Positions 1,266 through 63,569 of a stretch of DNA of 64,000 nucleotides are shown here, piece by piece. The notes under the pieces are model-generated. The model did no database searches. It saw only the letters and a list, made by a program, of their open reading frames with translations, and was not told the origin of the DNA. Made by a program: the position numbers and the translations under genes. The stretch comes from Macrostomum lignano (Eukaryota), in the NCBI GenBank assembly GCA_002269645.1, contig NIVC01001811.1, forward strand, positions 248,001 to 312,000. The letters are read 5' to 3'. Position 1 is the first letter of the stretch. Each line of letters begins with the position of its first letter.

Positions 1266-1290
1266 TTCGTTTGCAGGCTGTTGTTATAAA

Positions 1291-19422: not shown

Positions 19423-19589
19423 TTCTTGCATACAGAAAAATATAAAACTTAAATAAGCAAAAGTCAAATGAAACAAGAAAATCAGCAAATACACAAGGTA
19501 GGAAAGAAACAAGAAACAAGAAATCAAACTTACGAACTTATGAACTTCAACTTATGTACTTATGAACTTAAAGACGAACAGATGAAAAA

Positions 19590-23399: not shown

Positions 23400-23607
23400 C
23401 AACGCCTCCGATGTCCTGGCGCTGGCGTCTCCTTGACACAGCCGCCTGCGCCTGCCGCGCCATGCCAGGCCACCAGAATTTCCTTCTCAGCCGGTCGATG
23501 GCCTTCCTCCTGCCGAATTGACCCTGGTGGGCCCAACTGACGGTCTGCTGCTGAAGCGCTGCGGGTACAACGATTCTGTTGCCCCTGAGCAGCACGCCGT
23601 CACGCAC
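23400..23607 (-). pseudogene. Gypsy integrase zinc-binding region remnant; catalytic core absent
   Basis: DGVLLRGNRIVVP...WAHQGQFG...LRRKFWWPGM is the typical pre-integrase HHCC region. Confidence 0.75.
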
Positions 23608-24983
23608 CTGAAGCTCCCCTTGAGCGAGTGGAAGCTGCCGGCCTGGGCTGTAGCGCCGGAGCGCCAGTTGCCAGTTGCCAACGCCTGCATGACGAAGGTC
23701 AGAGCCGGGTCCCCCGCTGTGGCATCGCGGACGCTCTTGATGGTCGGGCCTTCCGGTGCGGACTTGACGGAGTTGAGCTGCTGCAGCGGTACGTTGTCCT
23801 GGACTGGTTGCGCGTTTAGAGAATCGCTCAGACTTGTTGCCTTTCTGGCCGGTGCCCGGGCCTGCGTCCCCAGACTCAGCAGCTGCAGGGATGTCGAGGT
23901 TGCACGGCCGAGCACGCTGGTGCCGGTCCCTGGGACGATGATGAAGCTGGCGCGCCGGACCATTGAGCCAACCGAAACCTGCAGGCTGCAGGCTCCCACA
24001 GTGCGCAGAGGTTTAGCTGAACGAAATGAGAAAATCTTTGTCGTCGGCTGCAGGCCTGGGGGTTCCGGGAGCTCTCGCCAGGCTGCCTCGGTGAGGATGT
24101 TACAGTCGGCTCCGCTGTCCACCAGCACCTGCACTGGAGTCGCTTCCACCAGCACCGTGGCAAGAGCCGCTGTTGCGTTCGTGTCGGAGGCCATCACGGT
24201 CAGGCAGAAGACGTCGTCCTCTTCGCCCGAACTGTCGCTGCCGACCCGCAGAGCTCGCACGTCCTCCGGCCGGGACAGGCAGGCCTTGGCGAGGTGATTC
24301 GGCTTGCCGCATCGGTTGCAGGTCTTGCCTACCGCTGCGCTGCAGCTGCGGTGGCCGAAGTTGCCGCAGCAGATGCACTTTGGCTGCGTGCGATCGGCTG
24401 CCTGCGTGGCTGATCTCTGCGGCTGCCCTGGCGGGCTGGACTCGCGCTTCCGCAGCCGCTGCACGGTCACTGCGCTGGTCTCCATGAGGCTGGCCTGCGC
24501 CTCCGCTGCCTCCATGGCCCTTGCCACCCGGACCGCCTGGCCCAGGTCCACGTTGTCCATGGCCAGCAGCTTCCTGCGGAGCTGCTCGGAGCTGCAGCCG
24601 GCGATCAGCTGGTCACGGATCAGCGAGTCCCGGAGGCCTTCGAATTTGCAACAGTCCGCGGTGTTGTTGAGCCGCCGCAGCCAGTCGTCCAGGGACTCTC
24701 CGGTGAAGGGCAGGTTGAGCTGGCTGGTGAAGTGCTCATTGAGAGCCTTGATGAGCTTGTCGACGTCATCATCGGTGACGGCGAGTCCGGCTGCAACGGC
24801 CTGCAGGTCCTCGCCCGCTGTGTATAGAAGGAGTTGGCGAAGTCGCTTCTTGTCAGAGATATCAGCAGCTGCGGCGAACAGCTGGAACTGAGCCAGTCAC
24901 TTGCTCCACTTCGTATGTGCCGCATGGGGCTCCTCGCGCAAGTTCAATGTGGGCGGTATGGGTAGGCTTGCTTGCGACGCCAT
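23487..24983 (-). pseudogene. Gypsy gag-protease (one premature TGA); RT and RNase H deleted
   Basis: Single frame from ATG 24983 with zinc knuckles (CNRCGKPNHLAKAC) and aspartic protease VLVDSGAD. No RT motif. Confidence 0.85.
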
Positions 24984-29352: not shown

Positions 29353-30114
29353 CTAGTCTTTTAGCCATGGGTACTGTCTTAGTACCTTTGGGCGGCTCTC
29401 GCCGTAATCAAAGAGGAGTTCCTCGCCTGCCTTTATGTCGCGAGCGGCCTGGAAGGCTAGCTGGGGCTTGTCGCCTACATCAACCACAGTCGGCTTTAAG
29501 TTTTCTTTCGGCTGACTATGATTGATGTAGCGTCCGACATACTCAGTCGTGTCGGTAGCATCGACGCAGAAGGCTCGGCCTCGCCAGGAGAAAAAGAAAA
29601 GGAATGAGCAAGTCTTCCCTTGATCTAGAAGTTGCTGCTCCCGTTCGAGGCGGGCTTTTTGCCCTTGGATCATGTGTCCGCCGTAGCAGCAGACAATGAC
29701 GCCTTTTGCAAGGTTGATCCGGGCAAAAGCGCCCAGGCCCTCAGCATCAACGCTACCGGTCCGGACCACGACATTACCGGACTGTATCAACGTCCGGCGC
29801 CACAGGTCGGCCTGTACGATCTGCCTCACTGACGCGATACCGGACGGCAGGGACCGGTCTTCACTTCCCCGGCTAGCTCGACCGTAGGGCGTCACATGAG
29901 GGACCGGTATGCGCGCCCCTTCCGGCGTGATAATAACGTCATTAACAACTGCCTCGCAATGAGCGGTCTCCATTGCAGGCGAAGGCACTGTCGGAGAGGC
30001 GGCAGCGTGGCCAGAAGACTGCGCCGGTGCTCTTCCGGTGACGTTAACCGGCGTTCTGGTCACAGGGGCATCTTCTGCTTCGGCTTCTCGCTGGAGCCAA
30101 ATGCTAAAGGGAAT
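29353..30114 (-). CDS. Zinc finger-SET protein copy 2, exon 2 (SET domain)
   Basis: TTGTCAG acceptor then IPFSIWLQRE... SET motifs CVDATD, GRYINHS, DIKAGEELLFDYG, YPWLKD. Confidence 0.88.
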   Translation of the reverse strand: MPFSIWLQREAEAEDAPVTRTPVNVTGRAPAQSSGHAAASPTVPSPAMETAHCEAVVNDVIITPEGARIPVPHVTPYGRASRGSEDRSLPSGIASVRQIVQADLWRRTLIQSGNVVVRTGSVDAEGLGAFARINLAKGVIVCCYGGHMIQGQKARLEREQQLLDQGKTCSFLFFFSWRGRAFCVDATDTTEYVGRYINHSQPKENLKPTVVDVGDKPQLAFQAARDIKAGEELLFDYGESRPKVLRQYPWLKD

Positions 30115-30251
30115 CTGACAAATAAGATAAAAGACATACTCATAATACTATATCGCGTTTGTACTACTCGAACATGCATTGAAAGCTGCAGGTGACCCAA
30201 CTCTAGCCTGTTAACTAATTTCACTGAATAATTAACTAACTAACTAACTAC

Positions 30252-33094: not shown

Positions 33095-34039
33095 TCAGAA
33101 ATGGCCTCGCTGGCTCGGGTGCTCCAGCTGGCTTGTCTGGCCACGGTTTATGTAGACGCGCAGATACTCTAAGTACTCAAGAAACAGTTTGCGGCAGCGA
33201 GCTACAAACGGTTTCCCGCGGAGCTGCCTAGCATCAGCAGTAGGATGCTGCTTTGAACAGTGCTTTTTTAAGCTAGTTTCGGAGACGAAAATGCAAAAAG
33301 GGCACAAAAGAAGCCCTTGTCTTTCCTTTTCGCAATTCGTCTTGGCTTTAGCCTCATAAAGAGACAGGCGCTTAATCGCCTCTAGCCGCACTGGGTGTGT
33401 CTCGTTATGTTTGGAATGGCAATGCTGCTTAATTACGTCACTCCGAACTTTGGAGGAGCAGAGGGGGCACGTGCGCATTGCACCATGGCCTCCACGCTGA
33501 CCTGCTCCGCGTGAGGACGTGGCAGCACTTTCCTGATTTTCATCAAGGAACTCCTGAATTACTGCATCAATATATGTGTGCACGCCATTTGGGTCGAACT
33601 CACTGCCCTCTGAAGCATCAAATGGCCTCACACAAGGTGGGTCCGATGAATTGGTAATTGTGGCACCTTCGCTATACAGGAGCTCCAGAAATCCACCTGG
33701 CATGGGTGCCTCAGACATGGGAACCTCATCAGCCGACAGATCGACTGTGGGTACCTCCATGTAGGGCACATCAGCGAGGGCGGCAGAGTCAGGAGCCTCA
33801 GGGATGCTTATGATCATGGGCTCGTCAGGCACATAAGACATGGGCAGCCCAGGCATGAGTATCTCATCAGCCGACAGATCGACTGTGGGTGAATTCATGT
33901 AGGGTACATCAGGCGCCTCAATGATGTTAAAGAACATGGGCTCCTCAGCGCTTGGGCCGATCGTAGCCACCTCCGCGGGAACGCCAATGTCCTCATCAAT
34001 CAAAAAAGCAATTAACTGATCAAAGGCTTGATCGTCCAT
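33095..34039 (-). CDS. Acidic N-terminus + paired C2H2-like finger protein, 314 aa
   Basis: Intact ORF with CPLC-x11-H-x4-H and CPFC-x10-H-x4-H, and a duplicated DVPYMxxPTVDLSADE motif. It occupies the gene slot of cassette 4. Confidence 0.72.
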   Translation of the reverse strand: MDDQAFDQLIAFLIDEDIGVPAEVATIGPSAEEPMFFNIIEAPDVPYMNSPTVDLSADEILMPGLPMSYVPDEPMIISIPEAPDSAALADVPYMEVPTVDLSADEVPMSEAPMPGGFLELLYSEGATITNSSDPPCVRPFDASEGSEFDPNGVHTYIDAVIQEFLDENQESAATSSRGAGQRGGHGAMRTCPLCSSKVRSDVIKQHCHSKHNETHPVRLEAIKRLSLYEAKAKTNCEKERQGLLLCPFCIFVSETSLKKHCSKQHPTADARQLRGKPFVARCRKLFLEYLEYLRVYINRGQTSQLEHPSQRGHF

Positions 34040-34249
34040 AATGCGTTAGGTAAAATAATAAGCAAACAATAATCAAACAAAATTCAGGCTGCCATCTGCG
34101 TCAACGGTTGCCAAGTGCGCCGAATAGATTTCGGATTTCCATCGCCTAATAGGATTTCCCTAGCCCATAGACCATAGAAGATATGAACATTTATCATGCG
34201 GCACTAGCGTGACAGATTTCCCTTATGCACATATACAAGCCATAGAGTG

Positions 34250-34850
34250 GTTGACGCGTTTGGCTGACGCGTTTGGCTGACGCGTTTGGCTGATGCACTT
34301 GGCTGACGCGTTTGGTTGACGCGTTTGGTTGACGCGTTTGGTTGACGCGTTTGGTTGACGCACTTGGCTGACGCGTTTGGCTGACGCGTTTGGCTGACGC
34401 GTTTGGTTGACGCGTTTGGCTGACGCAATTGGCTAACGCGCTTGGTAAGTACGAGTGGGCTTGGTTGACACACATGGAAGGCGCACTTGGGCTTGTTTGA
34501 AGCGCTTGGCTGACGCGTTTGGCTGACGCGTTAGGCTGATGCAATTAGCTGACGCGTTTGGCTGACGCGCTTGGCTGACGCGCTTGGCTGACGCATTTGG
34601 CTGACGCGTTTGGCTGACGCGTTTGGTTGACGCGCCTGGCTGACGCACTTGGCTGACGCGTTTGGCTGACGCGCCTGGCTGAAGCACTTGGCTGACGCGT
34701 TTGGCTGACGCGCTTGGTTGACGCGCCTGGCTGACGCACTTGGCTGACGCGTTTGGTTGACGCGCTTGTCTGACGCGCTTGGCTGACGCATTTGGCTGAC
34801 GCGTTTGGCTGACGCGTTTGGCTGACGCGCCTGGCTGACGCGCTTGTTCC
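34250..34850. repeat. 13-bp minisatellite
   Basis: Unit GGCTGACGCGTTT. Confidence 0.95.
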
Positions 34851-35685: not shown

Positions 35686-35967
35686 TCAATCGCGTATGGG
35701 ATCACCTGTTAGATCTCGAACAGGCTCGCACGTCCCGTCACAGTCGTACGTCCCATATAGCGGATGCCCAACGCACAGCATCGTGACGAGTCGACCTTGC
35801 AACACGTGACCATGCCGAAGACGTCTCCGTACTTCGGGGTCGTACGCATTCACAGGGTCGTGACCAGCCAGAATGAGTAGTCTGTCTCGCCAATGGTGAC
35901 TCACTATCGATTGATACTTCTGGTTGACATTGAAGGTGTCCCCATTGATCAACCGTAGAAGCGGAAC
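35686..35967 (-). CDS. SF3 helicase gene, last exon (B'/C motif and Arg-finger region)
   Basis: TTTATCAG acceptor then VPLLRLINGDTFNVNQKY...RLLILAGHDP...YDPEVRRRL. Confidence 0.72.
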   Translation of the reverse strand, partial: VPLLRLINGDTFNVNQKYQSIVSHHWRDRLLILAGHDPVNAYDPEVRRRLRHGHVLQGRLVTMLCVGHPLYGTYDCDGTCEPVRDLTGDPIRD

Positions 35968-36074
35968 CTGATAAACAATACACATTCACGTACATCATTA
36001 TCAACAATATTGATAATTTACATTAATTTGTATAATTTATTATCAACAAGCTATATATGTACTAATTTACTCAC

Positions 36075-37455
36075 CATGGCGTCAGACTTAGGATCGAACA
36101 GCTCTGGTCGAACCTCGTCAATGAACATGACACGATGTACAGTGATGTCCAACGGATCGAATAGAAACGTGTTGGCTGTAGTTCGTGACGGGACTATATT
36201 GACAACACGAGTTTCACCGCAATGCGCAGCTACGCTATGAGTTTTGCCAACACCAGGTGGCCCCCATAGGTACACCACACCTTTACGTTGGCGAAGAGCT
36301 GCGCACACGGCTCGCATCGTTGGACATCCGCGTCGTTCATGTAGCGGTCTGTCGACATGTTATACATCAGCGTCGGCGGAAGCGGCGGCGACGGCGGCAT
36401 TGTTGGCGGGGGCGGCGGCGGTGGCGGCGTTGTCAGTGGCGGCGGCGGCGGCGTCGGCAGCAGCATTAGTCAGATTATTAGCGTCAGTCTCGCGTTCATT
36501 GGTCTGACTGTCAACACCAGTCGCGTTGTTGTCATCACTAGATACGTCGTGGATGGTGCGATCGCGTGTATGCCGATTTATAAAATGAGCACAACACGCA
36601 CAACCAGTGAGACGCTCTAGATTAATTCGACGTATCTTTTGTACGCGTTGAAATGGACGAATCATCTCGTGCTTACAAGAAACGTGGCGCATCAGAAAAT
36701 CGTCCTCTGGAGGTGGTGACTACTAATTCGCTATGATTTTCAATCCAATGATACGCTGACACGAGCATGCTACAGTCGGACATATTTACATTACGTAGCA
36801 TGGCGCCGCCATCGTGTCTTGTAACTGAGGCTAACGCATTCTTGAAATTTCGGACGCCGGCGATAAGGATTCGGCAATTGGTGTCGCTTACTATATATAC
36901 TGTATATTCGGGTCTGTAGACAGTATCTGGTGAATGATGGTATATAACTGGTAGCCAGACATGTTGCGTGGTGTTCGCATGTACAACGTAACTCCGCACT
37001 AGTTATAATCCAGATCGTCTTCGGCCACATGCTTAGATTGCCTGTGACGATTAAGTGTCTTATGTATCAGTTCATCGTCATCCAGCATGTTGGGCGAATT
37101 TCCGGTTAGATTGGCGACAACAAGTGCATTACAGTGACCGCGCAATGCCATGCAGAGTCGCACTTTAAGCTGGTCAGCATCAAGCACACCGGACAGTTCC
37201 ACGACGTGGTGTATCTGAGTGCGTAACGGTCTTCGCTTGAAAACGCGTTAAGTGGTTCGACGTCCCGATTTCTATGGAAACGTATTGGCCCGGAGGCTAG
37301 TGCATATCCGGGTTGTACATCCCTTGGGACAGTCGGACGCGCGTTTCTATTGGCATACGCGGCGGTGTTAGCGGCTAGATTGGCTGCAGCAGTCAAACTG
37401 ATGTCATCGACAGACAACTGTGTCAGCGATTGACTACTGATTGACAATGAGTCAT

Positions 37456-37499
<44 letters not shown>

Positions 37500-37975
37500 G
37501 GTGTCATAGTCGCTGCCAACTCAGCCGTCGCCGCCGCCGCCGCCGACTCATTCGCCGCATCGCTAGTCGTCGCAGCCGCCTCCAAACCAGGTGTCGCGTC
37601 TGGTACAGTCAGCGACGCACCTGTTGTTGATGGCGACTGTACAAGCTTTGCCCTCGCCTCATCCCTCGCTCGTATCGCCGCCAATGTCCTGTCTTTCATT
37701 GTCGCCGCATTCGCCGCTGCTGCCGCCGCAATCGAGACAGACGCCTGGCGTGACAATGCGTGCGCCCGGATACGATCGGTCGTATGCGAACTAACAGAAC
37801 TGCTAGAGTCACTGCCGCTAGACAATCTCGTCCGAATTGGTCCACGGACGTATGATTTGGTCGTCAGATTGGGCGCGCCTATTGTACTGGACGCATCAGA
37901 CTGCTGCGTATCGTCTGGCAACTGTCCAGTGTGTCGTTGATAGGGCGACGGAATTGCGCTCGACAACTGTGACAA
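36075..37975 (-). pseudogene. SF3 helicase gene, upstream part (frameshifts, one premature TAA); Walker A and B
   Basis: VYLWGPPGVGKT and VMFIDE, with ATG|GTGAGT donor at 36075/36074. 36720-36075 is one frame with a single TAA at 36360. Upstream ORF pieces abut with single-base shifts. Confidence 0.7.
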
Positions 37976-38160
37976 ATATGTATCTGATACAATTTCGCGT
38001 CGGAGCGCATTATCTGTTGACGTCGCCTTTTACGACACGGTTTTGCTCGTCGGCGAAGCAAACGACGCGCCATCTTGAACACGCGGCCCTGTGATAATTA
38101 TTTGAAAAAAGGCGCTTATTTATACATTTAAACCAAACAATAATTGTTTCATTCAACAAG

Positions 38161-38317: not shown

Positions 38318-39384
38318 CTACATCGCGCATGTCATCATCGTCGCGTAATAACTGACTGTTGACCGACGAGATAGACACGTTGATGAAGTCACTCGCCGCG
38401 ACGGACGCTTGTTTTGGAGTCGATGCTCGACAAAACTCGTCAATGAGGTCGAGATTGTTGCAACTGGAGAAAATGTGGCTACAATTCCGGTCGCATGTTC
38501 ATCCACGTCTATAGTGCTGTCACGCAACATAAACGGTGTATGAGCGGACACATCTGGCGTAGGAGTGTGCGACTTTGACAATGTCGATGGTTCAACAGCA
38601 GCCTCAGCATCAACAGTCTCGGCATCAGCAGCCTCAGCATCAACGACATCAACAGCATCGGTAAAAGCAGCAGCAGCAGCAGCAGCATTATCAGCATCAG
38701 CAGCAGCAGCATTATCAGCATCAGCAGCAGCAGCATTAGAATCTGCTGCTTCAGCAGCAGTAGCAACAGCAACAGCAGCGTCGGCATCAGCAGCAGCAGC
38801 AGCAGCAGTAGTAGTAGCGTTGGCATCGTCACCGTCCATGGTGGCCTCGCGAGCTTCTTGCACTTCAGCTGCATCGTTTGCACTGCCTGCCGACGTACTA
38901 TTCTATGTATGCACCAGTTTGTCGTACAAGTTGTTGACAATGTCCATAAGCGAAACGGTGCTGTTCGTTTAGCAGCATCTCCACAACCTGTAACAGTATT
39001 CAGGTGCTGTATCAGCAACAAAAGCAACAACCTGGTCGCCTTCGTCTTGCTTTTTGTCGATGATTGTTCGACCAGACAAGGCGTCGGCGCTTGTACTCGA
39101 TTCTGCTGCCGACAGTTGTTGATCCGGTCGCAGTCTCGTTCCGTCCATACTCAAGTCGAGAGGCTGCACCTGCTCAGCATATTGCAGTCGCTCGTCTTCG
39201 GTGTTTTACGAGTCTTTGTCGACATTCACAACAGCTGCGTCGGTGGTGGCGATGGCACGCATTTTAAGATCTAATGGTTGATCATAGATGGCAGCCGAGT
39301 GCACACTAAGATCCATCGGTAGATCTTGATCAGCAACAGCGGTAGCTGTAGCAGCAGCAGTAGCAGCAATGTCGTCAACGTTGT
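38318..39384 (-). pseudogene. Orphan gene with three CtBP-type PxDLS motifs (3' part; 5' part at 43847-43898)
   Basis: One frame with three premature stops. PMDLS 39319-39305, PLDLK 39277-39263, PLDLS 39163-39149. It rejoins ATG 43898 in frame once the LINE and one TSD copy are removed. Confidence 0.7.
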
Positions 39385-39427
39385 TGTTGCTGTTGTGTGT
39401 GTGTGTGTGTGCCTCGGACCGGAGCTC

Positions 39428-42400
39428 TCAGGTGATCCACTGCGGGTGGGCCACCCTCAAGAACCCTATCACCATGTTCTCCTCGCGCAGATCCTTCAGT
39501 TCACGCAGACCAGTGTGCTGCCGAAGCCCGTCCCAACGCGCGCACGACCACCAGTGGTCTTTATCTTCTATGTCACCGCAGTCCTCGCAAACGCCTTCTG
39601 CTTCCAGACCAATCTTCTGCCTCCAGTACTTAGTGAGTCTGCAGTGACCAGACCTGAGCTGGGCTAAGATGGAAGCAACTTTCCTGCCACATTCCGCGCG
39701 TTCAATCCCACCACCGTACACCGAGCGCAGACGGGGGTCATTTATGCAGGGCCTCCACCGGTGCTTCAGGTGTCTGCGTAACGCCTCAAACTCAACGGCC
39801 GTCTGCCCTTGGGGCAAGAGCGCTGCCTGCTTTGCCAGCTCGTCGGCCCTCTCATTTCCAGCGATGCTGCAGTGGCCTGGGATCCACTGGAGGGTGATGC
39901 TGCACCATACACTCGTCCTCCTGAGCCTGTCAATCAAGTTAAATTGGCTCCTGTTTCCAGTGACCCTCTCGGTACCGGTGGCCAAGACGGCGGACTTGCT
40001 GTCAGTCAGGATGAGAGCGCTACTTGGCCTCAGCTCTTCCACAAGATCTAGCGCCAGGTGCAAAGCCGTTCTTTCCGCGATAAGGGAGCTACAGAATTCG
40101 CCCGCTGCAGCTAACTTGCAGTACTCACGTTCATCGCACCAGGCGACACAGGCCGCTCCTCCGTTCCTTCCGTTTCCGTCTACAGAGCCGTCCGTGAAGA
40201 TTTTCAACTCGACCTGACCTCTTTCCTGGATGGTTCGAGCCGCGTCTTCTGCGATGTCTTCATCACCCTTCTTGGCATTGCCGGATAGGTCGGGAAACAA
40301 CCCGACCCCGTCGAGTCTGAGCCTTCTCCAAGGGGGGTGCCTTTTCCTCATGAATTCCTCCCTGGGAGCCTCGCTGATGGATCTACTTTCATACCTCGCT
40401 TGCTCGCGCCATCCCTTATTTGCCTTAAGTCTCCTGGGGAGGACGATGTCGCACATATCACGCTTGAGGCTGGGTCGGGGCTCGCGCTCAGCTTTCTCCC
40501 ATTCGAGAACGCAGCGCAGGATCGCTTTTTCGGAAATGGGCGGGATTCCTGTTTCCAGGTGAACCGCTTCCACCGGCGTTGATTTCACGAGCCCAGCTGT
40601 CAGACGGAGGGCTTCACGCTGCGCCCGCTCGATCTTTTGAACGTTGGTCTTCGAAATCCAGGGTAACCAAGCTGCCGCGGCGTACCAAACGCAGCTCTCA
40701 ACGATCGCAGAGTAAACTTTCTTGAGACTCTCCGCCTGCCAGCCCCATTCCGTATTGGCCACCGCCTTGAGAACCCTGCTTCTTCGGCGCATTTTATCGA
40801 CCACGGCGTCCGTGTGTTCCTGGAAATTGAGGCCACGGTCGATGCGCACTCCCAGGTACTTAAGCGAGACTTTCCCCGCGATCTCCTTTCCGCTAATCCA
40901 GAGCTTCGGGTGGCGATTTTTGTCTTTCGTGGACTTGCTGAAGAGGCAGGATTCGCACTTCCCTGGGTTCAGCTCAATTTTAAGGCCATCCGCCCAGCCG
41001 CCGATCTTATCCAGCGCACGCTGCAGGCGTTTAGTGATCTCCTCGGTGTCATCTCCGCTGCACCAGACTGCCAGGTCATCCGCGAAGCCGCCGTACTGCA
41101 CTCCCTCCTCTTTCACACCGGTCCAACCATTTACATACAGGAGGAACAGAACAGGGGAGCTCACCGCGCCCTGCGGGAGACCTTCCTGGAGGCGTCTGTA
41201 TTTGCTGTTGCCGTCCCCGGCACGGACTCTGGCTTGTCTTCCTTCCAAGAAGCTAGCAAACCACCTTGTGATCCTGGCTGGGACGCCCTCCTCCATCATT
41301 CTCTCAAGGAGTTTCACTCTCCAAACTTTTTCGAACGCTTTCGAACAGTCCAATGTCACGGCCAGAGTTTTTTTTGGTTTTTTGCTCTCCCAGCCGTCTT
41401 GAATGTGCTGCACAAGCCTGAGCACCTGTTCCTCGGTGCTTCTGCCCCTCTGGAAGCCGGCTTGCCAGGGCTGAATGATGTTATTCTCCTCCAGCCAGAA
41501 GTACAACCTGTTCACGACCATCCTTTCCATGAGCTTGGCGCAGACCGGAGTTAGGCTGACCGGTCTGTAGGATTCCTTCGCCGCTGGGTCTTTGCCGGGT
41601 TTAAGCAACGGAACGATTTCCGCTTTCTTCCAGGACCCAGGGCATAGCTCATCTGCCCAGCTTCTGTTGAAAACATCCAACCGTCTCTGACGGCCTACTA
41701 CGGAGAGGTTTTTAAGAAGCCGAACTTCAACTCCGTCAACTCCCCCCTTCTTCGTTGGGTCCATCAGCTTGAGCGCATCATCCATCTCATCCATAACGAA
41801 TGGTGTGTCAAACTCCTGGTGCGCGTTATAGGCTCTTAGTCTTCTAGCCACCTCCACCCGCTTGACCCGGTCCGCCTTCCCGATCTTGACCTTACTGTTA
41901 TCAGCGTACATGCTAACGAACACAGCCGCCTTTTCGACATCCGATCTGGCTTCGCGCCCTTTGTCAGCTAAAATTTGGTTAGGCGGGGCAGTATCTCTAG
42001 CTGAGTACAGTGATTTGATGGTACTCCAGGTCTTCTTCCCGTCGTCGTTTTCTTTAAGGCTTTCCACATGTTCGGCCCAGAAGGACCGCTTCTTTTCCCT
42101 GATTTTAGCCTCCAGGTTCCTGTTTACCTCCAACCACTTTTCTCTGCTGACAGTCGTGCTTCTAGAGCAGTTGTCCCGCTCATTCTGCAGAGCGCTCAGT
42201 TCATCGTCCCAAAAAGGTTTGTACTTTCCTCCCACTTTCTTCTTAGGGATGCTCAACTCCGCCGCCTTGACCATGGCTGCACTCAGCCCTCTGACCTCGG
42301 CTGCTAACTCGGTCCTTGGCACTTTCTCGAACAGATCATCCGCATTACGTTGGAACTCCGAGAAGTCCGCTTTCTTCCACGCCCAGTTTAGCTTGGTCTT

Positions 42401-43812
42401 CTTTTGCCGGATTTCTCTCCTGGTAGCCACGGTGACCAGGATGGGGAGATGGTCTGAGCCGAGACCTTCGAGGGTTTTCCACTCGCAGCGCTCCGCCAGC
42501 TCTCCCGCCGCCAACGAAATGTCCGGGACGCTGGTCCGTCCTGTACGCCAATCCACGCGCGTCGCGGCTCCATCGTTTAGGATCCTGTAGTCAAATTCTT
42601 CGCACCAGGATTCCAGCTCTAAAGCCTCCCTTCTGCTGTCTCTTCCTTGGTCGTCGCAGCTTCCCCAGCTTCTGCTGTGTAGGTTTAAGTCGCCGAGAAT
42701 CAGCTCTCTTCTGTCTGGTTTAAGCCAGCTCCAGACACTATCATCCTCCCTGTCGTCACTGCCTTCGACAGTGCGCACAGGGGGGCGGTAAACATTAGTG
42801 ATGACACACCTTTCCTTCCTGTTAACGTCCACGATCACGCGGCAGCCCTCCGTGGTAGTGCCTTTCCAGCCTGTCCAGCGCTTGAAAGGAAGATTGTGCT
42901 TGATCAGGGTGATCAGGCCTCCCCCTTTAGACTTATCGCTTCTGCGGATCTCCACCCTGTCCTTCCGGGCGGTGGTGTAGCCGGCGAAGCGGGGGTTGGC
43001 GACTCGCTGTCAAGTTTAGATTCCTGAATGACAGCCACGTCAATGTCATGCGCTTTCAGAAACCGCTCAAGCTCCACTTTCTTATTTCTAATGCCATCGG
43101 CGTTCCATTGCAGAATCCTCAGGTTTTCCCTCCGGGCGCTCGACCAGCCCTCGCCGGCCGGGTTTCTGGTCTCTTCCTTATCCACGGCGATATTATCGGT
43201 TCTGGCTCTTTCCAACTTGTCTGAGCACATCTGGCAGGTCCAAAGGCCTTTTTTAATTTCACCGTCGATTTGAGCTCTGCTGGCTCCAGTACACTTGTTA
43301 TGGAACAGTTCGTCACATCTAGTGCACCGCGCAATAACCTTAGTGACCTTGAGCTTGCCTCCACAGCCAGGCTTAGCACATCTGCTACCCTTCTCGATCC
43401 TCTCGATGCAGCGTTTTCTTCTCTCCTCAGCCGCCGCGGCATCTTCCGCCAACCAATCCTCCTGCTGAGAGCATCCGCCGCACTTCCAATCCTTCTTTCC
43501 TTCTCTCGCTTTGCTCTGGCCCGCTCTAGTCAAGCCTGTGCAGCTGCCGTGGACTTCGTTACCGCAGCCGACGCAGCGGACCGGGTTTTGGCCCCTAGTG
43601 ATGTTTTTTCCACATCTGGCGCACGGGCCAGGGTTGGGTTCCACATCGCCGTCCCTGTCAAGCCGCTCAGTTCTCCAGCCTCTCCTGTCTTCCTGCGCGT
43701 TGGTAGCGGGTTTCGCAGCATACCCTTCCAATCTCTTCCACCCTCTCTTATCATGGTGAACATGGTGATCCGCGTTACTCCGGGTGTTCGTATCCAAATT
43801 AGGAACTCTCAT
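39428..43812 (-). CDS. LINE polyprotein: 2A peptide, two PHD fingers, APE, RT, RNase H, C-terminal CCHC (one -1 frameshift at 42991-42995)
   Basis: DVEPNPGP; CARC...HGSC...WKC; LRILQWNADG; GDLNLH; LGSDHLP; GLPQGAVSSP; FADD; IFTDGS...WIPGH...NERAD. One extra base in a G5 run restores one 1462-codon frame. Confidence 0.9.
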
Positions 43813-43846
43813 CCGCCGCGAAGAGGCCCCCAGAGTGTAGGACGAG
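43777..43846 (-). ncRNA. HDV-like self-cleaving ribozyme at the LINE 5' end
   Basis: P1 CUCGUCC/GGAUGAG, P2 ACUCUGGG/CCCGGAGU, P3 GCC/GGC, L3 UCUUCGC, P1.1 CU/AG, short P4 UCC/GGA, J4/2 CGAA. P1 starts exactly at the TSD boundary. Confidence 0.8.
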
Positions 43847-43898
43847 TGTTGCTGTTGTTGTTGTTGATGATGATGCTGATGTTGTTGTTCTGTTGCAT
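43847..43898 (-). pseudogene. 5' end of the PxDLS gene, separated by the LINE
   Basis: ATG 43898 (MQQNNNISIIINNNNSN) is in frame with 39384 onward. Confidence 0.65.
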
Positions 43899-44152
43899 AT
43901 TGTAATAGATAGATGGATAGAATATTGAATAAAGATTTAGAGAATCAAAAATTTAATCAATCTGATTGAGTTCTAACTAGTTGAGCTTTAAGTAAGAAGC
44001 TACTGTCAAAAATTAATCAGATATATGTCTATGGTTTAACAAACTCTGGCCATAGGCTGTTCAGTTTGTACAGTGCACACTTGACAAATCGAGCGCGTAC
44101 GTATCTATGAGTTTTATAGCTAGTACGATACTGGATTGGAATCTTTTATACG

Positions 44153-44404
44153 TTAATAGGCAATACCATTTGCAAAGATGGGATGCAACTGACTAACAAA
44201 CAATTGTCTATGGTCCAACATGTGATAATTCCGCTCCAGATCATTGATTATAGCAGTCCATGGAGCGTATGCGCACTGTATAGAAACTTGTGTCTTTGGA
44301 TCGAATGAGAATTTGTCAATTTCAATCATTGCTAGGTACAGTTTAAAATTGAGCATTTGGAGGTTGAATGAAACAGTAGTAGCTGCACTTGTATACTGAA
44401 TCAA
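44153..44404 (-). CDS. Possible orphan gene fragment
   Basis: Protein-like 83-codon frame in otherwise AT-rich spacer; no paralogue in the window. Confidence 0.25.
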   Translation of the reverse strand: MIQYTSAATTVSFNLQMLNFKLYLAMIEIDKFSFDPKTQVSIQCAYAPWTAIINDLERNYHMLDHRQLFVSQLHPIFANGIAY

Positions 44405-45020
44405 TTAATGAATGGTCTATGTCTTAAACTGATTTACTACTGCCTACAAGATTGCAGTTGTTGAATCAAAAGTTGTCTATGTCATTAACAATCTAATATC
44501 TACGATTTTTTTTTGAGTACAAAACAGTTGTACCTATGCTAAAATATGTACAATCTATACAATAATCGAAAGTTATTGTTACCAATTACAAGTATCATGT
44601 GTCAGCACGCACACAATCACTCAACATACCCGTATCACGTTCGCATACCCGGTCGTATTCTCAATCACAGTCTAATTCTCGTTCTCATTGTCTAGAATTT
44701 TAGTATATTGTAGTTATTCTAATATGCATAGATATATTTATTGAAAATTTATTGAATACAAACAAATCTTATCTAAAACACAACTAATAAACCATACGTA
44801 ATACATCAACAATGTCAATATTATCAAAGTATAATGTTAAATCACGAACATTAAAATGAACTTATTATTTGATCTGATAATTATTTAATGTATTATTTAT
44901 TAATTAATCAATCAACAAATCAATCAATCGATCAAACAGATACGCGGCCTGATCGGGACGGACAGCAGACAACAGCAGACGCGAGCGACTGTAACAGTTC
45001 GAGCGACCATCTGCGAGTAT

Positions 45021-45885
45021 TTAGTCGGTGGATCGACGCGAACGCCATCTACGATACAGACGCGTCCAGGTGCAAGTGCGATGAACGCCGCTTGGTCGGC
45101 ACATATCCACCTAACAGGCGACTGACCGAAGATCGTTGGCAAAGCTGGACTCCTCTAGCAGATTGCCATCGGAGTCACACAGTGACATGGACGGTTCGGC
45201 TTGTCCAACTGGACTAACTAACACTTCGACCGGTGCACATTTATCGACATCGCCCAGACGGAGTGTCGCCTCGAATTCCTCACACGCGGCGACAAGCTCG
45301 AGTCTTGCCAACCGACTGGTCGATATTGTCATCGACAGCATTATTGCGCATAGAAGCATAATAAGCTGCTTCTATGGCGTTACAATCGGCCAGCGTCTCC
45401 GAGTCAAACATGTCGGCGTCGGTGTCGATGTTGATTGCATCTTGCCTGATTGTATGCTTTGACGCAGGTTCAACATCGACAGACTCGACCGCATCGTGAG
45501 CACCATATGTCGCGGCACAGTCACTGATGATCGAGTGTCGCCGTTTACGCGAATTAGACGGTACTGACACAGCAACGCTAGTTACGATCGCATTCGCCGT
45601 GAACAGATCGCCGTCTAACATGCGCATTGCTTGATTGAGCTGTTCAGCCCAATCAATCCCGGCCGACTGTAGTGTGGACACGGCATGTCTGGCCTCGGCA
45701 TGCGATGCAGTCGATTGTTGCTGTATTAGACGCTGCTCGACGGATTCGCACGCAACGACCATGTCCGCGTCGGTGACGTCATTGGCCCAATCGAGATCAC
45801 CGGCAGTCTTCGATTGACACAGTTGCTGTTCGTGTCGCTGTTGTTGCTGCTGCTGTTGATGATTTTGGTGATTGTCGCCCGACAT
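45021..45885 (-). pseudogene. Orphan family B copy 2
   Basis: MSGDNHQ... start as in copy 1, frameshifting deletion near 45300, premature TAG at 45111, conserved C-terminus. Confidence 0.72.
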
Positions 45886-46194
45886 GTTGAAGACCGTTAA
45901 TATATGTTTTATTGTAATAATACGCAACAATTGATTTTAATAAGTATAACTGTTGGTATCGTAATTGTGAAGGACTTGCAGCATAAAACATTTGCCGCGT
46001 CTGAGTGTAGCCTGTTCTCGATGAAATTGTATCTATGGTAGAATGCACTAATCAGTCGATAGGTTTATAATTAATTAATTACACTATTAGTAAAATTTAT
46101 TAGTTAGAATAATGTTTATATAAAATCGACTATTCTGTTAAGACCATTGCATGTGGAGCTGTTTATTTTTATGCATAAAAAACAGACTGACATG

Positions 46195-48410: not shown

Positions 48411-49135
48411 CTATGTGGTGAGTTGTTTCAATTTGTTTAAAATAAGTATAAAAAGAAGCGTCTAAATTGGCTGACAGCACAACAAACAGTTGTTGGACTG
48501 AATTATTTATTAATTAGTTATATAGATTATCAAAAAGTTATCGAATCTAGATCAAAGTTTCTTTATCAAACGCAGACTGATGATAAGCAACAGATGCGAG
48601 CAAATTATAGTTTATGTCATTAGTCCATTAATTAATAGCATTCTAATTACAATATTTACGAAATCTACTGAGTACAGTATGCATAGTTGTTCTTACGCAC
48701 TTCAAATTGATTTAACGACAAAATGATTTAACGGATCATTCCAATGTACAATGATATATTTATAGAAACAAACCAACAAACATATTGTATTCAAAACGCA
48801 ACTCATATTTACATATTTAACGCATAATAAACAATGTCAAATAATATCAACCAATCAATCAATAAACCCGTCAATCAATCAACCAAGGTCTAATGTTAAA
48901 TCACAAACAATAGACTTAATTTATTGGATAATTCAAGTTCATACATTATTTATTAATTAGTCAATTAGTCAGTAAAGCAATCAATCAATTAATCAATCAA
49001 TCAATCAACCAATCAATCAGATTCACGACCTGGTCTGAACCGACAGCAGACTACAGCAGGGGCGCGCGCACGCTCGCGCGTCTGTATTGGCTCGGGTGAC
49101 CATCCATCCAACCGGCCATGTAGCTATCTAGCCAT

Positions 49136-49915
49136 CTAGTCGGTGGATCGACGAGAACGCCATCGACGATACAGTCGAGTCCAAGTGCGATTGCGACGAG
49201 GTCGACACATGTCCACCTGGCAGGCTACTGACCGCTTATCAGCGACAAAGCTGGACTCCTCTAGCAGATTGCAATCGGAGTCGTACAGCGATCCAGACGG
49301 GTCGGCTTGACTAATTGGGCTAGCCATCGACTCTTCGCCCGGCGGTGCACATTGATCGATGGCGCTCAGATGGATTGCTGCCTCGACCTCTTCGCATGCG
49401 GCAACAAGCTCCGCATCTGACATGTACATGTCATCAGCGGCGGCCGAATCTGCATCGCCAATGGTCGCATCAGTCGGCGGCTGTTCAACGTCATCATTGG
49501 CGGCGGCGGCGGCGGCAGTGGCGGCATCACTGTCGCTGCTGCACATAGAAGCATATTAAGCCGCTTCTAATGCGTCGCATTCTGCCAGTGTCTCTGCGTC
49601 GATCAAGTTGTCGATATTATCGTCATCATCATCGGCATCAAGATCGACGTTCGTGACACACTGGCGGCGTTCTTGACTGATGCACGAATAACGCCGCTCA
49701 CGACGCGAGTTGACCGGCATCGATGTCGCAGCAACGTCGGTCACAATCGCGTTTGCTGCGTACAAATCGCCGTCTAACCAGTGCATCGCTTCTTCGAGCT
49801 GCTCAGCCCAATCGACGCCTGCCGAATGCATTGCTGACACGGCGCGTCTGGTCTCGGCATACGATACAGACGCCCTCATCGATGTTTGCTGCGTTGTATG
49901 CTGTTGTTCTTCATC
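49136..49915 (-). pseudogene. Orphan family B copy 3, 5'-deleted, one premature TAA
   Basis: Same frame across the TAA at 49556; full conserved C-terminus. Confidence 0.72.
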
Positions 49916-50865
49916 TTGACTGAAACAGACTGTCGCTATAAATCATTTGCCTTGTCTGGTCGCAACCGGTTCCCTAATACAGTTGTCTATGGCAAATCTC
50001 GTTTCTTTCTACGTATAATTGTCTATGGTAGAAATGTACAAATCTATCGACTATTTTTATAGTTGATAATTTCTATCCAAAGAGCTGTTCTATTTTGCCT
50101 CGACTGTCGTTCGATCTCAATATTTCTGCCTGTATCTATCACTCACTCACTCACTCACTCACTCACTCACTCACTCACTCACTCACTCACTCACTCACTC
50201 ACTCACTCTATCCTGTTTCTACATACATCGCCTGCATCTCGTGTTTTTCCTTTCATCGTTGACTGCGTGCGTGCGTGCGTGTATGCGTGCGTGCATGTAT
50301 GCATTTCGTTATCCATCTACAGTTCTAGTCATCCATTCTCTTAATGGTAGCTAGTACAGCTAGTACAGCTACAGTTAGTACCGCTCAATACAGCTATCTG
50401 AGTAGTGAGTCTGGATATATGAGTCTATCTGCGGGACCGGAGCCAAACCGCAGCACCGTCGGGTCACCTGACACTTAGAGCGGTCGCGCACAACACGGCA
50501 CAGCTCAGCGGGCGCGAGTCGCGTGCCAGCGCCCTGTCAATACGCTCACAGGCTGGCATATATGGTCGGTCGCGAAGTGTCAGGTGTCGAAACCGTCCGC
50601 GGGTTGGACAGCCGGTTGGTCGCGATGTGTCGTCGTCAACAGTGCACACGAAGACGCGCGGGACCGGAGCCAAACCGCAGCACCGTCGGATCACCCGATC
50701 GTACACCATGCACCGGACAACTAGAGAGGCCACACAGTAAAGCGCAGCGCAGCGCACACGTTTCCGGTTACATGCCGTCAACTTGAAGGCCTGCACACAG
50801 GTGAATAATAATATGACAGATTTACTATGACAGATTGAATATTTAGATAACATGAATATACTAGC

Positions 50866-52186
50866 TTTCACATTTCTCGGCCAGCGCAGCGTTTCCTAAA
50901 AATAATTGAGGCTGTGACAGGTAAGTGGTTAAAGTTAGTGGGATAATGATAGTAGTAGGTAGTAGGTAGGTAGGTAGGTAGGTAGGTAGGTAGGTAGGTA
51001 GGTATGTAGGTAGACAAGTATATGTTTGGGTTAGGGTTAGGGTTAGGGTCAGATCGGGTCTTGTCATATTGGGTTAGTCAGTCAATAGGTATGTATTAGC
51101 GTGCGTTAGGCATTATTGGCATTATTGGCATTAGGCATTAGGCATTAGGCATGCATGCATGCTAGCTATATGACTGCTGGCTATATGGCTGGTTGTGGCA
51201 GTCAGTCAGTCAGTCAGTCAGTCAGCCAGTTGTACTACTATCGTTAGTTAGATTTGATTAACAGCAGTATTAACAACATACACAAACATAGACTAGCTAA
51301 CATAGATAGATTACCATAGACTAAAGTAGTACTCTAGTCGGCTACACTGTGTCAGCATCCGTCCGTTCTCTATCTATCTATCTATCCATCCATATGTGTC
51401 AAGTATATAGTGGGGATGGGGGGGAGGGGGGTAATAAATCAGCGGCGCCTCGCTATCAGTCAGCCAGGTTTGGCCATAGACAATTATTTGCATATACTCT
51501 GTCGTGGTCTCTGTAGTAGACGCGGCCGGCCTTCGTCTCCATTATATAATTAGGTTTATATTAAATAATACTAATATATGTAGTACGGTGTTAATTTATG
51601 TGTACGCACGTAGTATGTTACTATTCTAACTATTTATAGAATAGTGTTACTATAAATATTAAATACAGTCACTATTTATGGAAATATGCAACTATAAATA
51701 CATGCGGGTTCACCCCTAGAGATATAGAGGATTCGCTCACTCAATCACTGATTGATTCTATTACACATGTTAGTAGAATCGTCTATGTCTTATATCTCTA
51801 TGGGGTGAAACCGCATCTATTTATAGTTGCATAGTTCCATAAATAGTGACATTTATTAATATTTATAGTAACACTATTCTATACATAGTTAACAAACGAT
51901 TAATTATAGCATGCGCGCTTGCATTTACTATTGACGTCATTAATCATTAGCCAGTCAGCCAGCCAGTCATCAAGACGTGCGTACAGTCAGTCAGTCAGCA
52001 TATATACATGCAAAATAAAATATGCATTGTCTACTACTGAAAGAAGTAGCCTGCCTGAACGAACTACAATAATTCATTCATTCTCTACCCTCTCCCCCCC
52101 CACACTAACCCTAACCCTAACCCTAACACATGAAACAAACAAATTTTATTCTGGGGGACGCGCTGCGCTGACCGAGAAATGTGAAA
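50866..52186. mobile_element. Foldback-like element with 26-bp terminal inverted repeats, converging (TTAGGG)3 tracts and central 99-bp hairpin
   Basis: TTTCACATTTCTCGGYCAGCGCAGCG at 50866-50891 and inverted at 52161-52186. TTAGGG tract 51028-51048, CCCTAA tract 52105-52127, inverted arms 51628-51726 / 51791-51890. Confidence 0.6.
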
Positions 52187-58230: not shown

Positions 58231-58519
58231 CATTCAATTAACCAATTAATCAATCAATCAATCAATCAATCAATCGATCAATCATTCAATCATTGAATCA
58301 ATCAATTAACAAACCATTCAGCCAACAAATTAATGTTGTGGCTAGTACATAAACATAAATTATTACGTAGCATATAGGGAGACGATTATAAAACGATATA
58401 AAACAATTAATCGTATTATAAAGAAAATAAAAAAACAAGAAGATATCAAGCGCGATATTTTTTTAATTAGCAATCCAACAGTCACTCATTGCCGTTTGCC
58501 AAACAATTTAGTCTAACTA

Positions 58520-59458: not shown

Positions 59459-60232
59459 TATTTAACTGCGGAAGTAAATGCAACTTATTTAACCCAAATT
59501 AGACTATTTAGCACAAGGAAGTTGAAGGGACAAAAATTTTGTCGTCTATGGCCAACAAGTAAGTGTCTAACTTGCGATATGAAGCTCGCTTCTCGTTTGC
59601 CTATTGCATTAGATAGACTGTTATTAATATTTTAGTTAGAGCGCGCTCGATATTATTTGGGTGGATGAAACGCATACAATCAAGTTAAATCGCTTCATAC
59701 TATATACATTGCAGTAAATAAATCATCAATAATAAACACACTAACAAACTCTATCCATATACACACATGGTTCATGTAAGAATCTGTGACATAAAAACGC
59801 ACGTACATCTAGGCATATATGCACGTGTGCGCGCATATTTTTATGTACAGTTATCTATGTATTCATTCACATATGGTTGTGTCTAGACATGAACGAGGCT
59901 TGATAATAGTTACGATTTCGATTCATATGGTCGAATCTTAATTTGCTTTTCTAAGAAAGAATTCCTAATTACCTTTTTGTTTGTGTTGGACACAACCATT
60001 GTGTTGTGGCGTAATCGGTTAAAATAAAACGACATATCAGGTATTTTATTCACTCGTCTGTGCGCCGAACGACACAACCTGATCATGTGACAATAAAGCT
60101 CTGCTGTTGTTACTGTTGCTGTTGATCCGGTCGACCCCTACGCGATCCGGTCGCAACGCAGTCAATCGGGTCAATTGCACCAACTGACTGCGATCGTCGG
60201 CGGGTGGTGGTCGAACGCACACTAGATGTTGA

Positions 60233-61228
60233 TTATGATCTGCGCCGCCTGCTCGATGATTGTACATTCGATGTTGCAGCAATCGACTGATCAGCAGCCA
60301 CTGAAGAAGTAGCACTGTCAGTCGATGTACCAGACAAATGAATGCGCCGCTCCGACCGCGTCTGGACTAATCGCCGATCGTCAGCATCATCGTTAGCAGC
60401 CAATCGATTTAAATCGGCAGGTACGCTCGATCCAATGCGCGTACATGCAGAGGAGAGCAACGACCCCGAATTAGATACAGATTGGCTATCATGGCGGCGG
60501 CGGCTAATCTGTACAGTTGGCGTACGAGTCGCGTCATCGCTTCTTTGACAGCCAGTTGTTGCCCTGTCGTCATCGGCGTCTTCGTCAGCATCTTCATCAT
60601 CGTCGGCGTCTAGATCGACGTTCGACAAACCAATACGACGTCGTTTTTTTGGTGGCGGCGAATGCGGTGACTTGGATCGCGACATTCTGTTCGACGACGA
60701 TGGTGACGAAAGCGCAGGCGTGACAAACTTTTCGCACCATAGGATGAACGATTTACACAATCGTCTCGGTGACAACAGTGTTGCGCCACGGCCTCGCGAA
60801 CCTTGCTTGTGTGGCACCTCGCTTGGTGGTAATCACGTTATGACCGTATCCATATTGGAGCCTTTGTTTTTTAACGCGTATTCAAGGTGATGTCGACACA
60901 GATAGATCCACGGCAATACACGATTGCTATGGAATATTGCAGTGCCCAAGAATTCCAGCTCGCGACTGACTGGCATTATGAAATCGCGCCATGTTCTACG
61001 CGGAGAATCTGTTTGATTGGCCAGCCGCGCAATGTTGGACCAGGTACCTTCTGTTGGTAGATCCGACCAGGAATGTGTCTCGATCATATCAACCAATTCC
61101 AGTAGCCTGTTTCTTACGAGATCATACTCTTCGACAGACAGGAACAACTCGGTGTATTTTTGTTGTCGCGCATCATCATTCAGATGGTACCGATTGTCCT
61201 GTTGTCGGCTGACTCGTCCAAGTTGCGC
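60233..61228 (-). pseudogene. Orphan gene F: helical N-terminal domain, NLS, acidic and Ser/Arg-rich tail; one premature TGA
   Basis: CAG acceptor at 61229. ORFs 60833-61147 and 60233-60817 share a frame separated only by TGA 60833. SPPPKKRRR motif. Confidence 0.6.
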
Positions 61229-61271
61229 CTGTGTGTATTATAAGAGAAACAGAAATTCATCTTTATGCATT

Positions 61272-61306
<35 letters not shown>

Positions 61307-62034
61307 GATGTGCATAAGACAAAAAGTTGAAAACAGTTTCGAAAAAATGCACATACGACTTGATTGAGATTGCGTAACCATATTGCTATCTTGAATTGAG
61401 ACTGACACTGGCTGACTGAGAAATTGACTATGTCAAAACTTTTTACTCTAACCGACTTGCTGTAAGAATTGAATTATAAGGACCACAATTCACGAAAAGA
61501 GATAGCCTAGATGCAAACAGACTGGACTGACTGGACAGACTGGACAGACAGACTACAGACAGACAGACAGACTGGACAGACTGGTAGCGACCTGGGTTCG
61601 AATCTTAGTACTGCAAAATAATTTTTTTATTAAAACACCTTAAAAACAAAAAGCACAAACAGAACAAACAGAGCGAAGAGCGAGAGCAAGGCCCAGAGCC
61701 GCATTAAATAATAATCAAACCCTGGGGCCGATGGCCCCACCGGCTAAGCCCACCCAAACAAGCTACCCCAACAAAAAAGAGACTGGCCGCGCCGGCCAGC
61801 CAATCAAAACCCCGCCTAGGGGGGGAAGGGGCCGCACCCGCGCCAAAGCTGGCCCGGCCGCAGCCAACCAGCCCTGAGCACGGGGCAGGGGCACGGCTGG
61901 GGAGGGGCACGCGCAAAGCCCGGCCGGCGACCAGACCCTGCCACGCCCGCCAACCCCCCCCAACCAGCCCCAAAGTGCAACGCGCCCTGCCAACTGACAA
62001 GGGCGCATGCACTACACTCAATTTCGCGTATTTA

Positions 62035-63396: not shown

Positions 63397-63569
63397 ATCA
63401 CATATAAACGTAACATTTAGCCCCGTTTTTCTCCAAGACGATCGTCGGGCCGAATTTATCAGGCTGGCCAATGGTTGAGACGGCAGTTGGAACGCTAGAT
63501 GACTGTTCGCACAGCACAACTGACTCTTGTGCTTGATGACTGACCACGCTCTACGTAGAGGCATGTAGA

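Follow-up and report, generated by a model that had tools for sequence, protein, structure and literature searches.

Documented cases of CtBP mimicry come from vertebrate DNA tumor viruses, and adenovirus E1A CR4, EBV EBNA3A/3C and Marek's disease virus Meq each show how a non-host replicon can encode a protein with a PxDLS-type motif. Multiplicity of such motifs also has a precedent, as EBNA3A carries two synergizing CtBP sites (PMC2883600, PMC6925507). Among integrated animal DNA elements, the Oncoids of adintoviruses/Polintons are short-motif accessory genes placed upstream of the replicase; they are defined by LxCxE, CK2, CR1 and CxxC, and the paper describing them has 0 occurrences of CtBP (PMC8502044). 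Here we examine a PxDLS-bearing gene in 64,000 nucleotides of Macrostomum lignano DNA (the window, to which all coordinates refer). Its carrier is a multi-copy DNA element of this flatworm. On balance we consider it probable that this copy is a dead accessory gene whose disordered product likely docked CtBP through an N-terminal PxDLS array, and that a LINE arrived after the premature stops.

The interrupted gene and its LINE

On the minus strand (38318..43898), a 4.45-kb LINE (39397-43846) interrupts a gene frame of 372 codons. The longest word common to the two LINE junctions is 12 bp and marks the two copies of the target-site duplication (copy 1, 43847..43858; copy 2, 39385..39396). Removal of the LINE together with one 12-bp copy joins a microsatellite-like 5' piece of 13 codons (43859..43898, ATG at 43898, delimited by the junction word) to the 3' piece (38318..39396), and the two sum to 1119 nt, i.e., 372 codons plus the stop. 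The initial annotation had proposed just this frame, with three premature stops, and both points hold: junction word and summed lengths agree, and the stops at 39208, 38971 and 38905 recur in contig C2898, a natural empty-site copy without the LINE. C2898 differs from the window gene by 2 mismatches and 1 gap in 1079 nt, and since it shares identical stops, inactivation of the gene preceded the arrival of the LINE. The start has an equivalent in the empty-site copy, and other alleles start at the matching position. The annotation had missed a frame-shifting indel near 38447, as a consequence of which the terminal ~43 codons of its frame do not correspond to the family C-terminus. The product of the 3' piece is acidic, Ala-rich and predicted to be disordered, and a non-coding upstream region (43899..44480, minus strand) is common to every copy of the gene. 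The LINE itself, on the same strand, encodes a PHD-finger ORF1 and a 1193-aa endonuclease-RT-RNase H frame (ORF2) and ends in a (CA)n tail; APE endonuclease, RT, RNase H, a 3' simple tail and the target-site duplication are those of a LINE, probably I-group-like. The window gene copy has no activity of its own, and what follows concerns its family.

PxDLS-type motifs and host CtBP

The three motifs reported in the initial annotation were located on the minus strand as PMDLS (39305..39319), PLDLK (39263..39277) and PLDLS (39149..39163, downstream of the first premature stop), spanning at most 57 residues and beginning at 39319, 39277 and 39163, in keeping with the ~55 residues claimed. PMDLS and PLDLS match the CtBP-type motif exactly and PLDLK is a variant, at a position where two other alleles have PLDLS. 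PMDLS is also the CtBP motif of Knirps (PMC9890238). The first two motifs lie 14 residues apart, matching the 42-bp period of a tandem unit that another allele has in expanded form; the three window motifs are therefore not independent. Shuffling the 357-residue piece 200,000 times produced a single P.DL[SK] in 0.7% of trials, a pair in 0.003% and never three, a null that takes no account of tandem duplication; with a looser pattern, a single motif arose in 3% of shuffles.

The gene was found at 13 places; every copy of it immediately precedes the helicase gene, and the flanks are mosaic. Motifs are present at 6 of them, and the other 7 carry a short motif-less allele. The motif-bearing sequences fall into three divergent alleles (63-78% identity in the shared core), with three motifs in the window allele, five PLDLS plus one PLDFS in that of contigs C4144 and C2093, and a single one in that of C1098. 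Alleles with 0, 1, 3 and 5 motifs form a natural series in which avidity and the loss of short linear motifs are directly testable. Open copies, which the initial annotation had suggested seeking, do exist, but all five with both the gene and the helicase exon open are motif-less, and the helicase is broken or missing in every motif-bearing copy.

It is unlikely, in our judgment, that the motifs are incidental, i.e., that a chance PLDLS-like word arose in a microsatellite-rich frame and was multiplied by 42-bp slippage with no CtBP role. The frequency of single motifs in shuffles fits such an origin, as do the tandem repeats that fill the element, the four near-identical 42-bp units of the C4144 allele and the lack of motifs in the least damaged copies, and the motif copies do derive in part from tandem DNA duplication. 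The final K of motif 2 in the window lineage and the F of C4144 motif 3 also count against the CtBP reading. Against an incidental origin, P and D are invariant in the 10 motif copies although all four Pro codons are used. Motif 3, 38 residues off and with diverged flanks, retains the word, and the deletion that took most of the N-terminal part of C1098 spared the motif unit as an island. Orthologous motifs of the window and C4144 are identical at 12 of 15 residues, with 6 synonymous changes, compared with 47% identity across 139 aligned codons. Conservation of the motifs, which had been named as a check, is thus above that of their flanks among the three alleles compared, yet does not extend to the 7 of 13 places where motifs are absent.

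Protein-guided dN/dS between long alleles was 0.40, next to 0.39-0.40 for the helicase, by a method biased low; among short alleles it was 1.4-1.9, resting on few changes. In unbiased DNA alignments the third-position excess was weak, a point in favor of incidental motifs, with p 0.09 for the long alleles and, against the short alleles, p 0.046 for the window and p 0.26 for C4144, while the helicase gave p 0.002. A midpoint-rooted core tree without outgroup set the window and C4144 alleles apart from C1098 and the short alleles (starred). In the scenario that we favor, the motif would be ancestral and would have been lost stepwise by in-frame deletion (from 3 or more to 1 to 0), the motif-less allele being that of the least damaged element copies. 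Contigs of presumed-RNA runs cover the gene and its non-coding flank alike, and such contigs cannot rank genes; in the C1098 allele, coverage of the motif region was scant or nil.

Capture of the motif region from a host transcriptional repressor, with hitch-hiking in some copies, appears very improbable. Presence of the region in some alleles only would suit a capture, and PLDLSMH, the motif with its flank, resembles animal repressor motifs. However, searching the genome with this region returned five element places as top matches, the other 141 (E 2.6e-6 or weaker, not individually inspected) resemble unrelated tandem repeats, and a DNA match on contig C180 has no motif in any frame.

Macrostomum lignano encodes a CtBP (E 2.6e-52 to solved CtBP1; full-length protein P0012) with a PxDLS cleft region nearly identical to that of solved CtBP. 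Prediction of the motif-CtBP complex scored 0.58, compared with 0.28 for the best of three controls, with at least 44% contact agreement among runs and a partner pLDDT of 45-46. The mark applied is reached by 51 of 78 solved pairs and 2 of 108 mismatched pairs, and passes at or below 0.60 comprise only 5 of the 78 solved pairs but all 4 passing mismatches; as like complexes have already been solved, the pass may reflect memorized structures. Because the motif recurs with synonymous changes, the host has the matching cleft and the complex prediction is weakly supportive, the motif-bearing gene likely docked CtBP, as read from sequence and modeling. Of the CtBP recruitment claimed originally, the motif in two further alleles and the host cleft speak in favor and the motif-less state of 7 of 13 places against. 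In this reading the PxDLS cleft of CtBP dimers/tetramers would receive the motifs, and the presence of several would add avidity. No LxCxE, CxxC or basic NLS was found in any of the three motif-bearing alleles, and profile searches gave the product no family match. Lacking a recognizable DNA-binding domain or NLS, the product would serve as a decoy or an adaptor in the manner of E1A CR4 or EBNA3A and would not be a stand-alone repressor. The window gene was likely such a CtBP decoy/adaptor accessory, dispensable and here dead.

The carrier element

The neighboring gene (35700..38080, minus strand), broken in the window copy, encodes an SF3 Rep-like helicase by profiles and motifs. Walker A (36240-36263), Walker B, B' and C follow in order within ~110 aa, with an R-finger-like end, the SF3 arrangement, though scores fall below curated cut-offs (PF00910, E 0.006-0.07; best PDB profile match a Rep, E 0.034; top BFVD matches Rep/NS1, E 0.0015 and weaker). 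A spliceosomal intron (35968-36074, minus strand) is present in family A, and a contig from run X2 has the flanking exons joined. In the N-terminal domain, no HUH/YxxK catalytic motifs were visible by eye and Pfam gave no Rep match. Structure prediction gave two models of low quality (pLDDT 39.5 and 41.9), and a PDB Foldseek search returned nothing at E 0.001. No homologue of the family A helicase reached E 0.01 in a set of 7997 candidates, and the sole match of an alignment search was the host's own annotated protein. A representative library gave 6 matches, including 2 host and 2 short metagenome proteins; the other two, P0005 and, presumptively, P0008, look like repeats or noise and were rejected as relatives.

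Further along lies a palindrome (51627..51891; 90-nt arms, 91%, z -21.4), bracketed by TTAGGG x3 (51031-51048, plus strand) and CCCTAA x3 (52109-52126), and similar palindromes occur in all five other element copies examined. Remains of a zinc-finger/tyrosine-recombinase-like gene (59585..61309, minus strand) belong to the same element. The gene is tentatively called recombinase-like for its R..K..R..Y spacing, presumably that of tyrosine recombinases: K and R are invariant and R and Y near-invariant in 4 sequences, and neither Pfam, PHROGs, NCBIfam, the PDB profile nor hhalign against a Crypton protein lent support. Families B and C share the helicase and recombinase-like core, and long frames within ~20 kb on each side of their five loci hold no PxDLS. 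Elements measure 5-45 kb and abound in tandem repeats. An ETAA1-like RPA-binding motif considered in a neighboring gene was dropped, the PDB search giving no such match.

Three observations would suit an integrated virus with an unrecognized capsid and a true E1A-like early transcriptional effector: the Rep-like helicase that follows the gene is closest, if weakly, to CRESS Rep and parvovirus NS1, the hairpin has telomere-like repeats, and units of 19.4 kb lie head-to-tail on contig C267. We nevertheless judge this quite improbable, given the spliceosomal intron, the absence of LxCxE, CxxC and NLS, viral contig scans without loci related to the element, and 17 element proteins without a PHROGs capsid match, a search that divergent capsids could escape. 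The one NCBIfam capsid match falls on an Ala-rich stretch (18.6 bits, cut-off 75). Scanning of window ORFs and element proteins, with small ORFs partly covered, revealed no pPolB, rve integrase, packaging ATPase or DJR capsid.

The carrier, with its SF3 helicase and recombinase-like gene unmatched in the searches run, may be the bigger find, and an abstract-level literature search, outside Repbase, supplements and most subscription journals, returned no account of such an element. A more far-reaching possibility, less likely than not, is that at least three families in this one genome form a class of animal mobile DNA that is new to description. It would be built on an SF3 Rep-like helicase lacking evident nicking motifs and on a tyrosine-recombinase- or protelomerase-like enzyme that acts at the telomere-flanked palindrome; its large family would carry disordered adaptors to host factors, among which the CtBP decoy would tune element silencing or release through its motif number (0, 1, 3, 5).

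Relation to described systems

In the order of Walker A, B, B' and C and the R-finger-like end, the helicase resembles CRESS Rep and parvovirus NS1, but it differs from them in lacking a visible HUH/YxxK, in its family A intron, in the 5-45 kb of the element and in the recombinase-like gene. Helitrons fuse HUH to an SF1 PIF1 helicase, unlike the SF3-type enzyme here. The R..K..R..Y-spaced conserved gene is presumably reminiscent of Cryptons and transpovirons, a likeness for which profile searches gave no match; Cryptons are not known to carry a helicase, and transpoviron helicases are SF1. From Polintons/adintoviruses the element is set apart by PolB, rve integrase and capsid, none of which was found.

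As for the E1A-like effector beside the helicase, the neighbor is real, but likeness to E1A is limited to the motif. The LxCxE Rb-binding motif and paired CxxC zinc finger characteristic of E1A and Oncoids are absent from the three motif-bearing alleles. Compared with E1A, EBNA3 and Meq, the flatworm gene has no LxCxE, zinc finger, bZIP or NLS, varies from 0 to 5 motifs among copies within one genome, and resides in an invertebrate host, in a carrier known as an integrated element without a capsid found. If our reading is true, the CtBP takeover trick reaches invertebrate mobile DNA, in an integrated and apparently capsid-less flatworm element. The Oncoids, short-motif accessories upstream of a replicase, share this arrangement.

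A LINE-split gene with PxDLS motifs

The initial annotation described a gene that is split by a LINE and carries PxDLS motifs for docking the corepressor CtBP. The split was confirmed by a 12-bp word duplicated at both ends of the LINE (39397-43846, minus strand) and by a natural LINE-free version of the locus on contig C2898, which over 1079 nt shows 2 mismatches and 1 gap relative to the window; C3652 holds a near-identical copy with the LINE. Since LINE-free C2898 carries the same premature stops (39208, 38971, and 38905), the insertion is real and younger than the stops. Read as separate flanking pieces, the gene starts at ATG 43898 and resumes after 39396, with PMDLS at 39319, PLDLK at 39277, and PLDLS at 39163 in frame. 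The proposed 372-codon frame, three stops included, held for the summed pieces (372 codons plus a stop) but not for the C-terminal part, where a frameshift near 38447 had been missed and a different frame encodes the family's C-terminus.

The first frame of the LINE encodes PHD fingers; a 1193-aa frame specifies endonuclease, RT, and RNase H, and the LINE closes with a (CA)n tail. One base near 42990 differs from the window in 4/4 runs, so an assembly error may account for the frameshift between ORF1 and ORF2. The LINE's insertion site is a CAA/CAG microsatellite, and Ala/Gln codon repeats harbor many other insertions among copies of the carrier element; loose ends noted alongside lie at 35574, 36412-36465, and 37527-37545.

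Alleles with and without the motif

Searches of the Macrostomum lignano genome, whose place counts are lower bounds, found the gene at at least 13 places, 6 with motifs and 7 without. The window locus (three contigs) has three motifs; C4144 and C2093 have PLDFS and, within a 42-bp tandem unit, five PLDLS, and are broken further down by another insertion; and C1098 has one PLDLS and is open for 289 residues before shifting. The short alleles (C267 twice, C157 twice, C2367, C2362, and C570) begin at the same place and lack the whole motif region. Open copies were recovered, though not with the motif: the five open gene copies (5/7 short alleles, 231-306 aa) have beside them a first helicase exon that is open as well (661-706 aa), whereas the helicase is broken or missing in all motif-bearing copies.

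Conservation of the motif held within its carriers, where Pro and Asp are invariant in 10/10 motif copies, Leu4 and Ser5 persist in 9, and each of the four Pro codons is used, but not across the family, given the 7 of 13 places without it. A comparison of the three orthologous motifs of the window and C4144 found 12/15 residues identical and 6 synonymous changes; the identity over 139 codons was, by contrast, 47%. The corresponding dN/dS of 0.40, a protein-guided and biased estimate, is similar to that of the helicase; values among short alleles (1.4-1.9) reflect very few changes. In DNA-only alignments, third-position excess gave p values of 0.09 (long versus long), 0.046 (window versus short), 0.26 (C4144 versus short), and 0.002 (helicase control). 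Three motifs arose in 0/200,000 shuffles, a result that overstates the case because motifs 1 and 2 are tandem-duplication products. A shared-core tree, midpoint-rooted without an outgroup from copies with mosaic flanks, placed the short alleles in one starred clade beside C1098, and the window and C4144 across the midpoint. Stepwise motif loss is the simplest reading.

Host CtBP and a putative docking function

A PF02826 search for host CtBP returned 40 matches, of which 15 loci were fetched and 8 of these translated. One translated set is CtBP (E 2.6e-52 to solved CtBP1), with a nearly identical N-terminal cleft region; P0012 is the full-length protein and P0014 a paralogue, both assigned to M. 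lignano by their source. Complex prediction of CtBP 10-342 with a 47-residue stop-free piece of the window gene scored 0.58 (best control, 0.28), with between-run contact agreement of at least 44% and partner pLDDT about 46, and weakly favors the pairing. The mark was reached by 51/78 solved pairs and 2/108 mismatched pairs, but scores of 0.60 or under comprised only 5/78 solved pairs and all 4 passing mismatches. The score may also reflect structures already known to the prediction model, since like complexes have been solved. PMDLS is given as the CtBP motif of Knirps (PMC9890238); molluscs and other lophotrochozoans have it in Su(H) (PMC6777938).

The long allele would have encoded a disordered adaptor with multivalent CtBP docking, which might have acted as a decoy or bridge because the protein has no recognisable DNA-binding domain. 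Docking would probably have been dispensable, as the least damaged copies lost the motif. On balance, we lean slightly toward a dead accessory gene that once docked CtBP via PxDLS motifs as such a dispensable decoy or bridge.

The carrier element and its relation to known systems

As annotated, the next gene downstream encodes a helicase, of SF3 type by its Walker A, B, B', and C motifs. Its matches are weak: PF00910, a Rep in the PDB (E 0.034), and, from a query model of pLDDT 42, Rep/NS1 proteins of BFVD (E no better than 0.0015). Helicase DNA has 15 genomic matches at 89-100%, and its 107-nt intron is joined across by one contig (depth 7.5) of X2, a run guessed to be RNA. Element copies hold an ordered module set over about 20-45 kb, with inversions and deletions, and C267 carries a 19.4-kb head-to-tail repeat. 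A palindrome between short TTAGGG arrays, upstream of the promoter of the PxDLS gene, recurs in 5/5 other copies examined (arms 113-364 nt). The C157 example (C157:521410-522215; L054:2910-3715), near-perfect with 364-nt arms at 98% and TTAGGG arrays at its bounds, looks like a dimer junction of hairpin-ended linear DNA.

Two more distant families, B (about 7.9 kb; two insertions with different flanks) and C (about 5 kb shared), show 25-33% identity. In these and the window's family A, the helicase is paired with a zinc-finger gene that is conserved in its C-terminal domain (27% over 241 aa between A and B, E 7e-21). Its residue pattern is reminiscent of tyrosine recombinases, a label unsupported by any profile search run. 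PxDLS is absent from long frames near B and C. The compact copies at C150:329166-337071 (B) and C1024:127679-132600 (C), with a helicase and recombinase-like core, are suited to defining the minimal element.

Several other features surround these genes. A triplicated disordered gene (44900-45900, 48900-49950, and 10960-12400; L119:2204-3082) has repeated acidic amphipathic motifs (W..DD..D.DL..AC..VE) whose spacing partly matches the ETAA1 RBM1 residues named in PMC10479964; a PDB sequence search gave this link no support. In families B and C, the upstream ORFs open with similar acidic motifs. The C2H2 zinc-finger and SET-domain frames that recur in the window (33095-34045, 29353-30147, and 18076-19551) possibly mark a fourth related family; at their starts the C2H2 frame and the recombinase-like genes look alike by eye, and the family B left end has one word in common with a 13-bp tandem array (34250-34850). 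A Crypton-like recombinase remnant was seen by eye at 63560-63750 (minus strand), and DUF3504 Crypton frames (L139:7330-8602 and L142:7968-8873) adjoin both family B insertions. The window also holds a Tc1/mariner transposase piece (58500-59400, plus strand), a retroviral-type protease frame (23490-24896, minus strand), and a listerin N-terminal fragment (1163-2704, minus strand).

No capsid was found among the carrier's scanned proteins, nor any description of the carrier in literature surveyed at the title/abstract-listing level. According to a preprint on small DNA viruses of eukaryotes, replicase modules may move independently and recombinases accompany PolA/AEP replicases; its consulted portion has no account of an SF3 helicase with a recombinase-like partner (10.64898/2026.10.13.758929). 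That the carrier is a new class of element seems to us possible but less likely than not.

The likeness to E1A extends to the PxDLS motif but not further: LxCxE, CxxC, PxLxP, and a basic NLS are absent from all three motif-bearing alleles, which are acidic (13-16% D/E) and Ala-rich (21-24%), and the protein has no meaningful match in Pfam, PHROGs, or NCBIfam. The flatworm gene lacks the LxCxE- and CxxC-type features that define adintovirus Oncoids, for which PMC8502044 leaves CtBP unmentioned. E1A is reported to bind CtBP via CR4 (PMC6925507), EBNA3A has two synergising CtBP sites against one in EBNA3C, and CtBP is required by Meq (PMC2883600). Such use of PxDLS would itself be familiar; its setting would be new.
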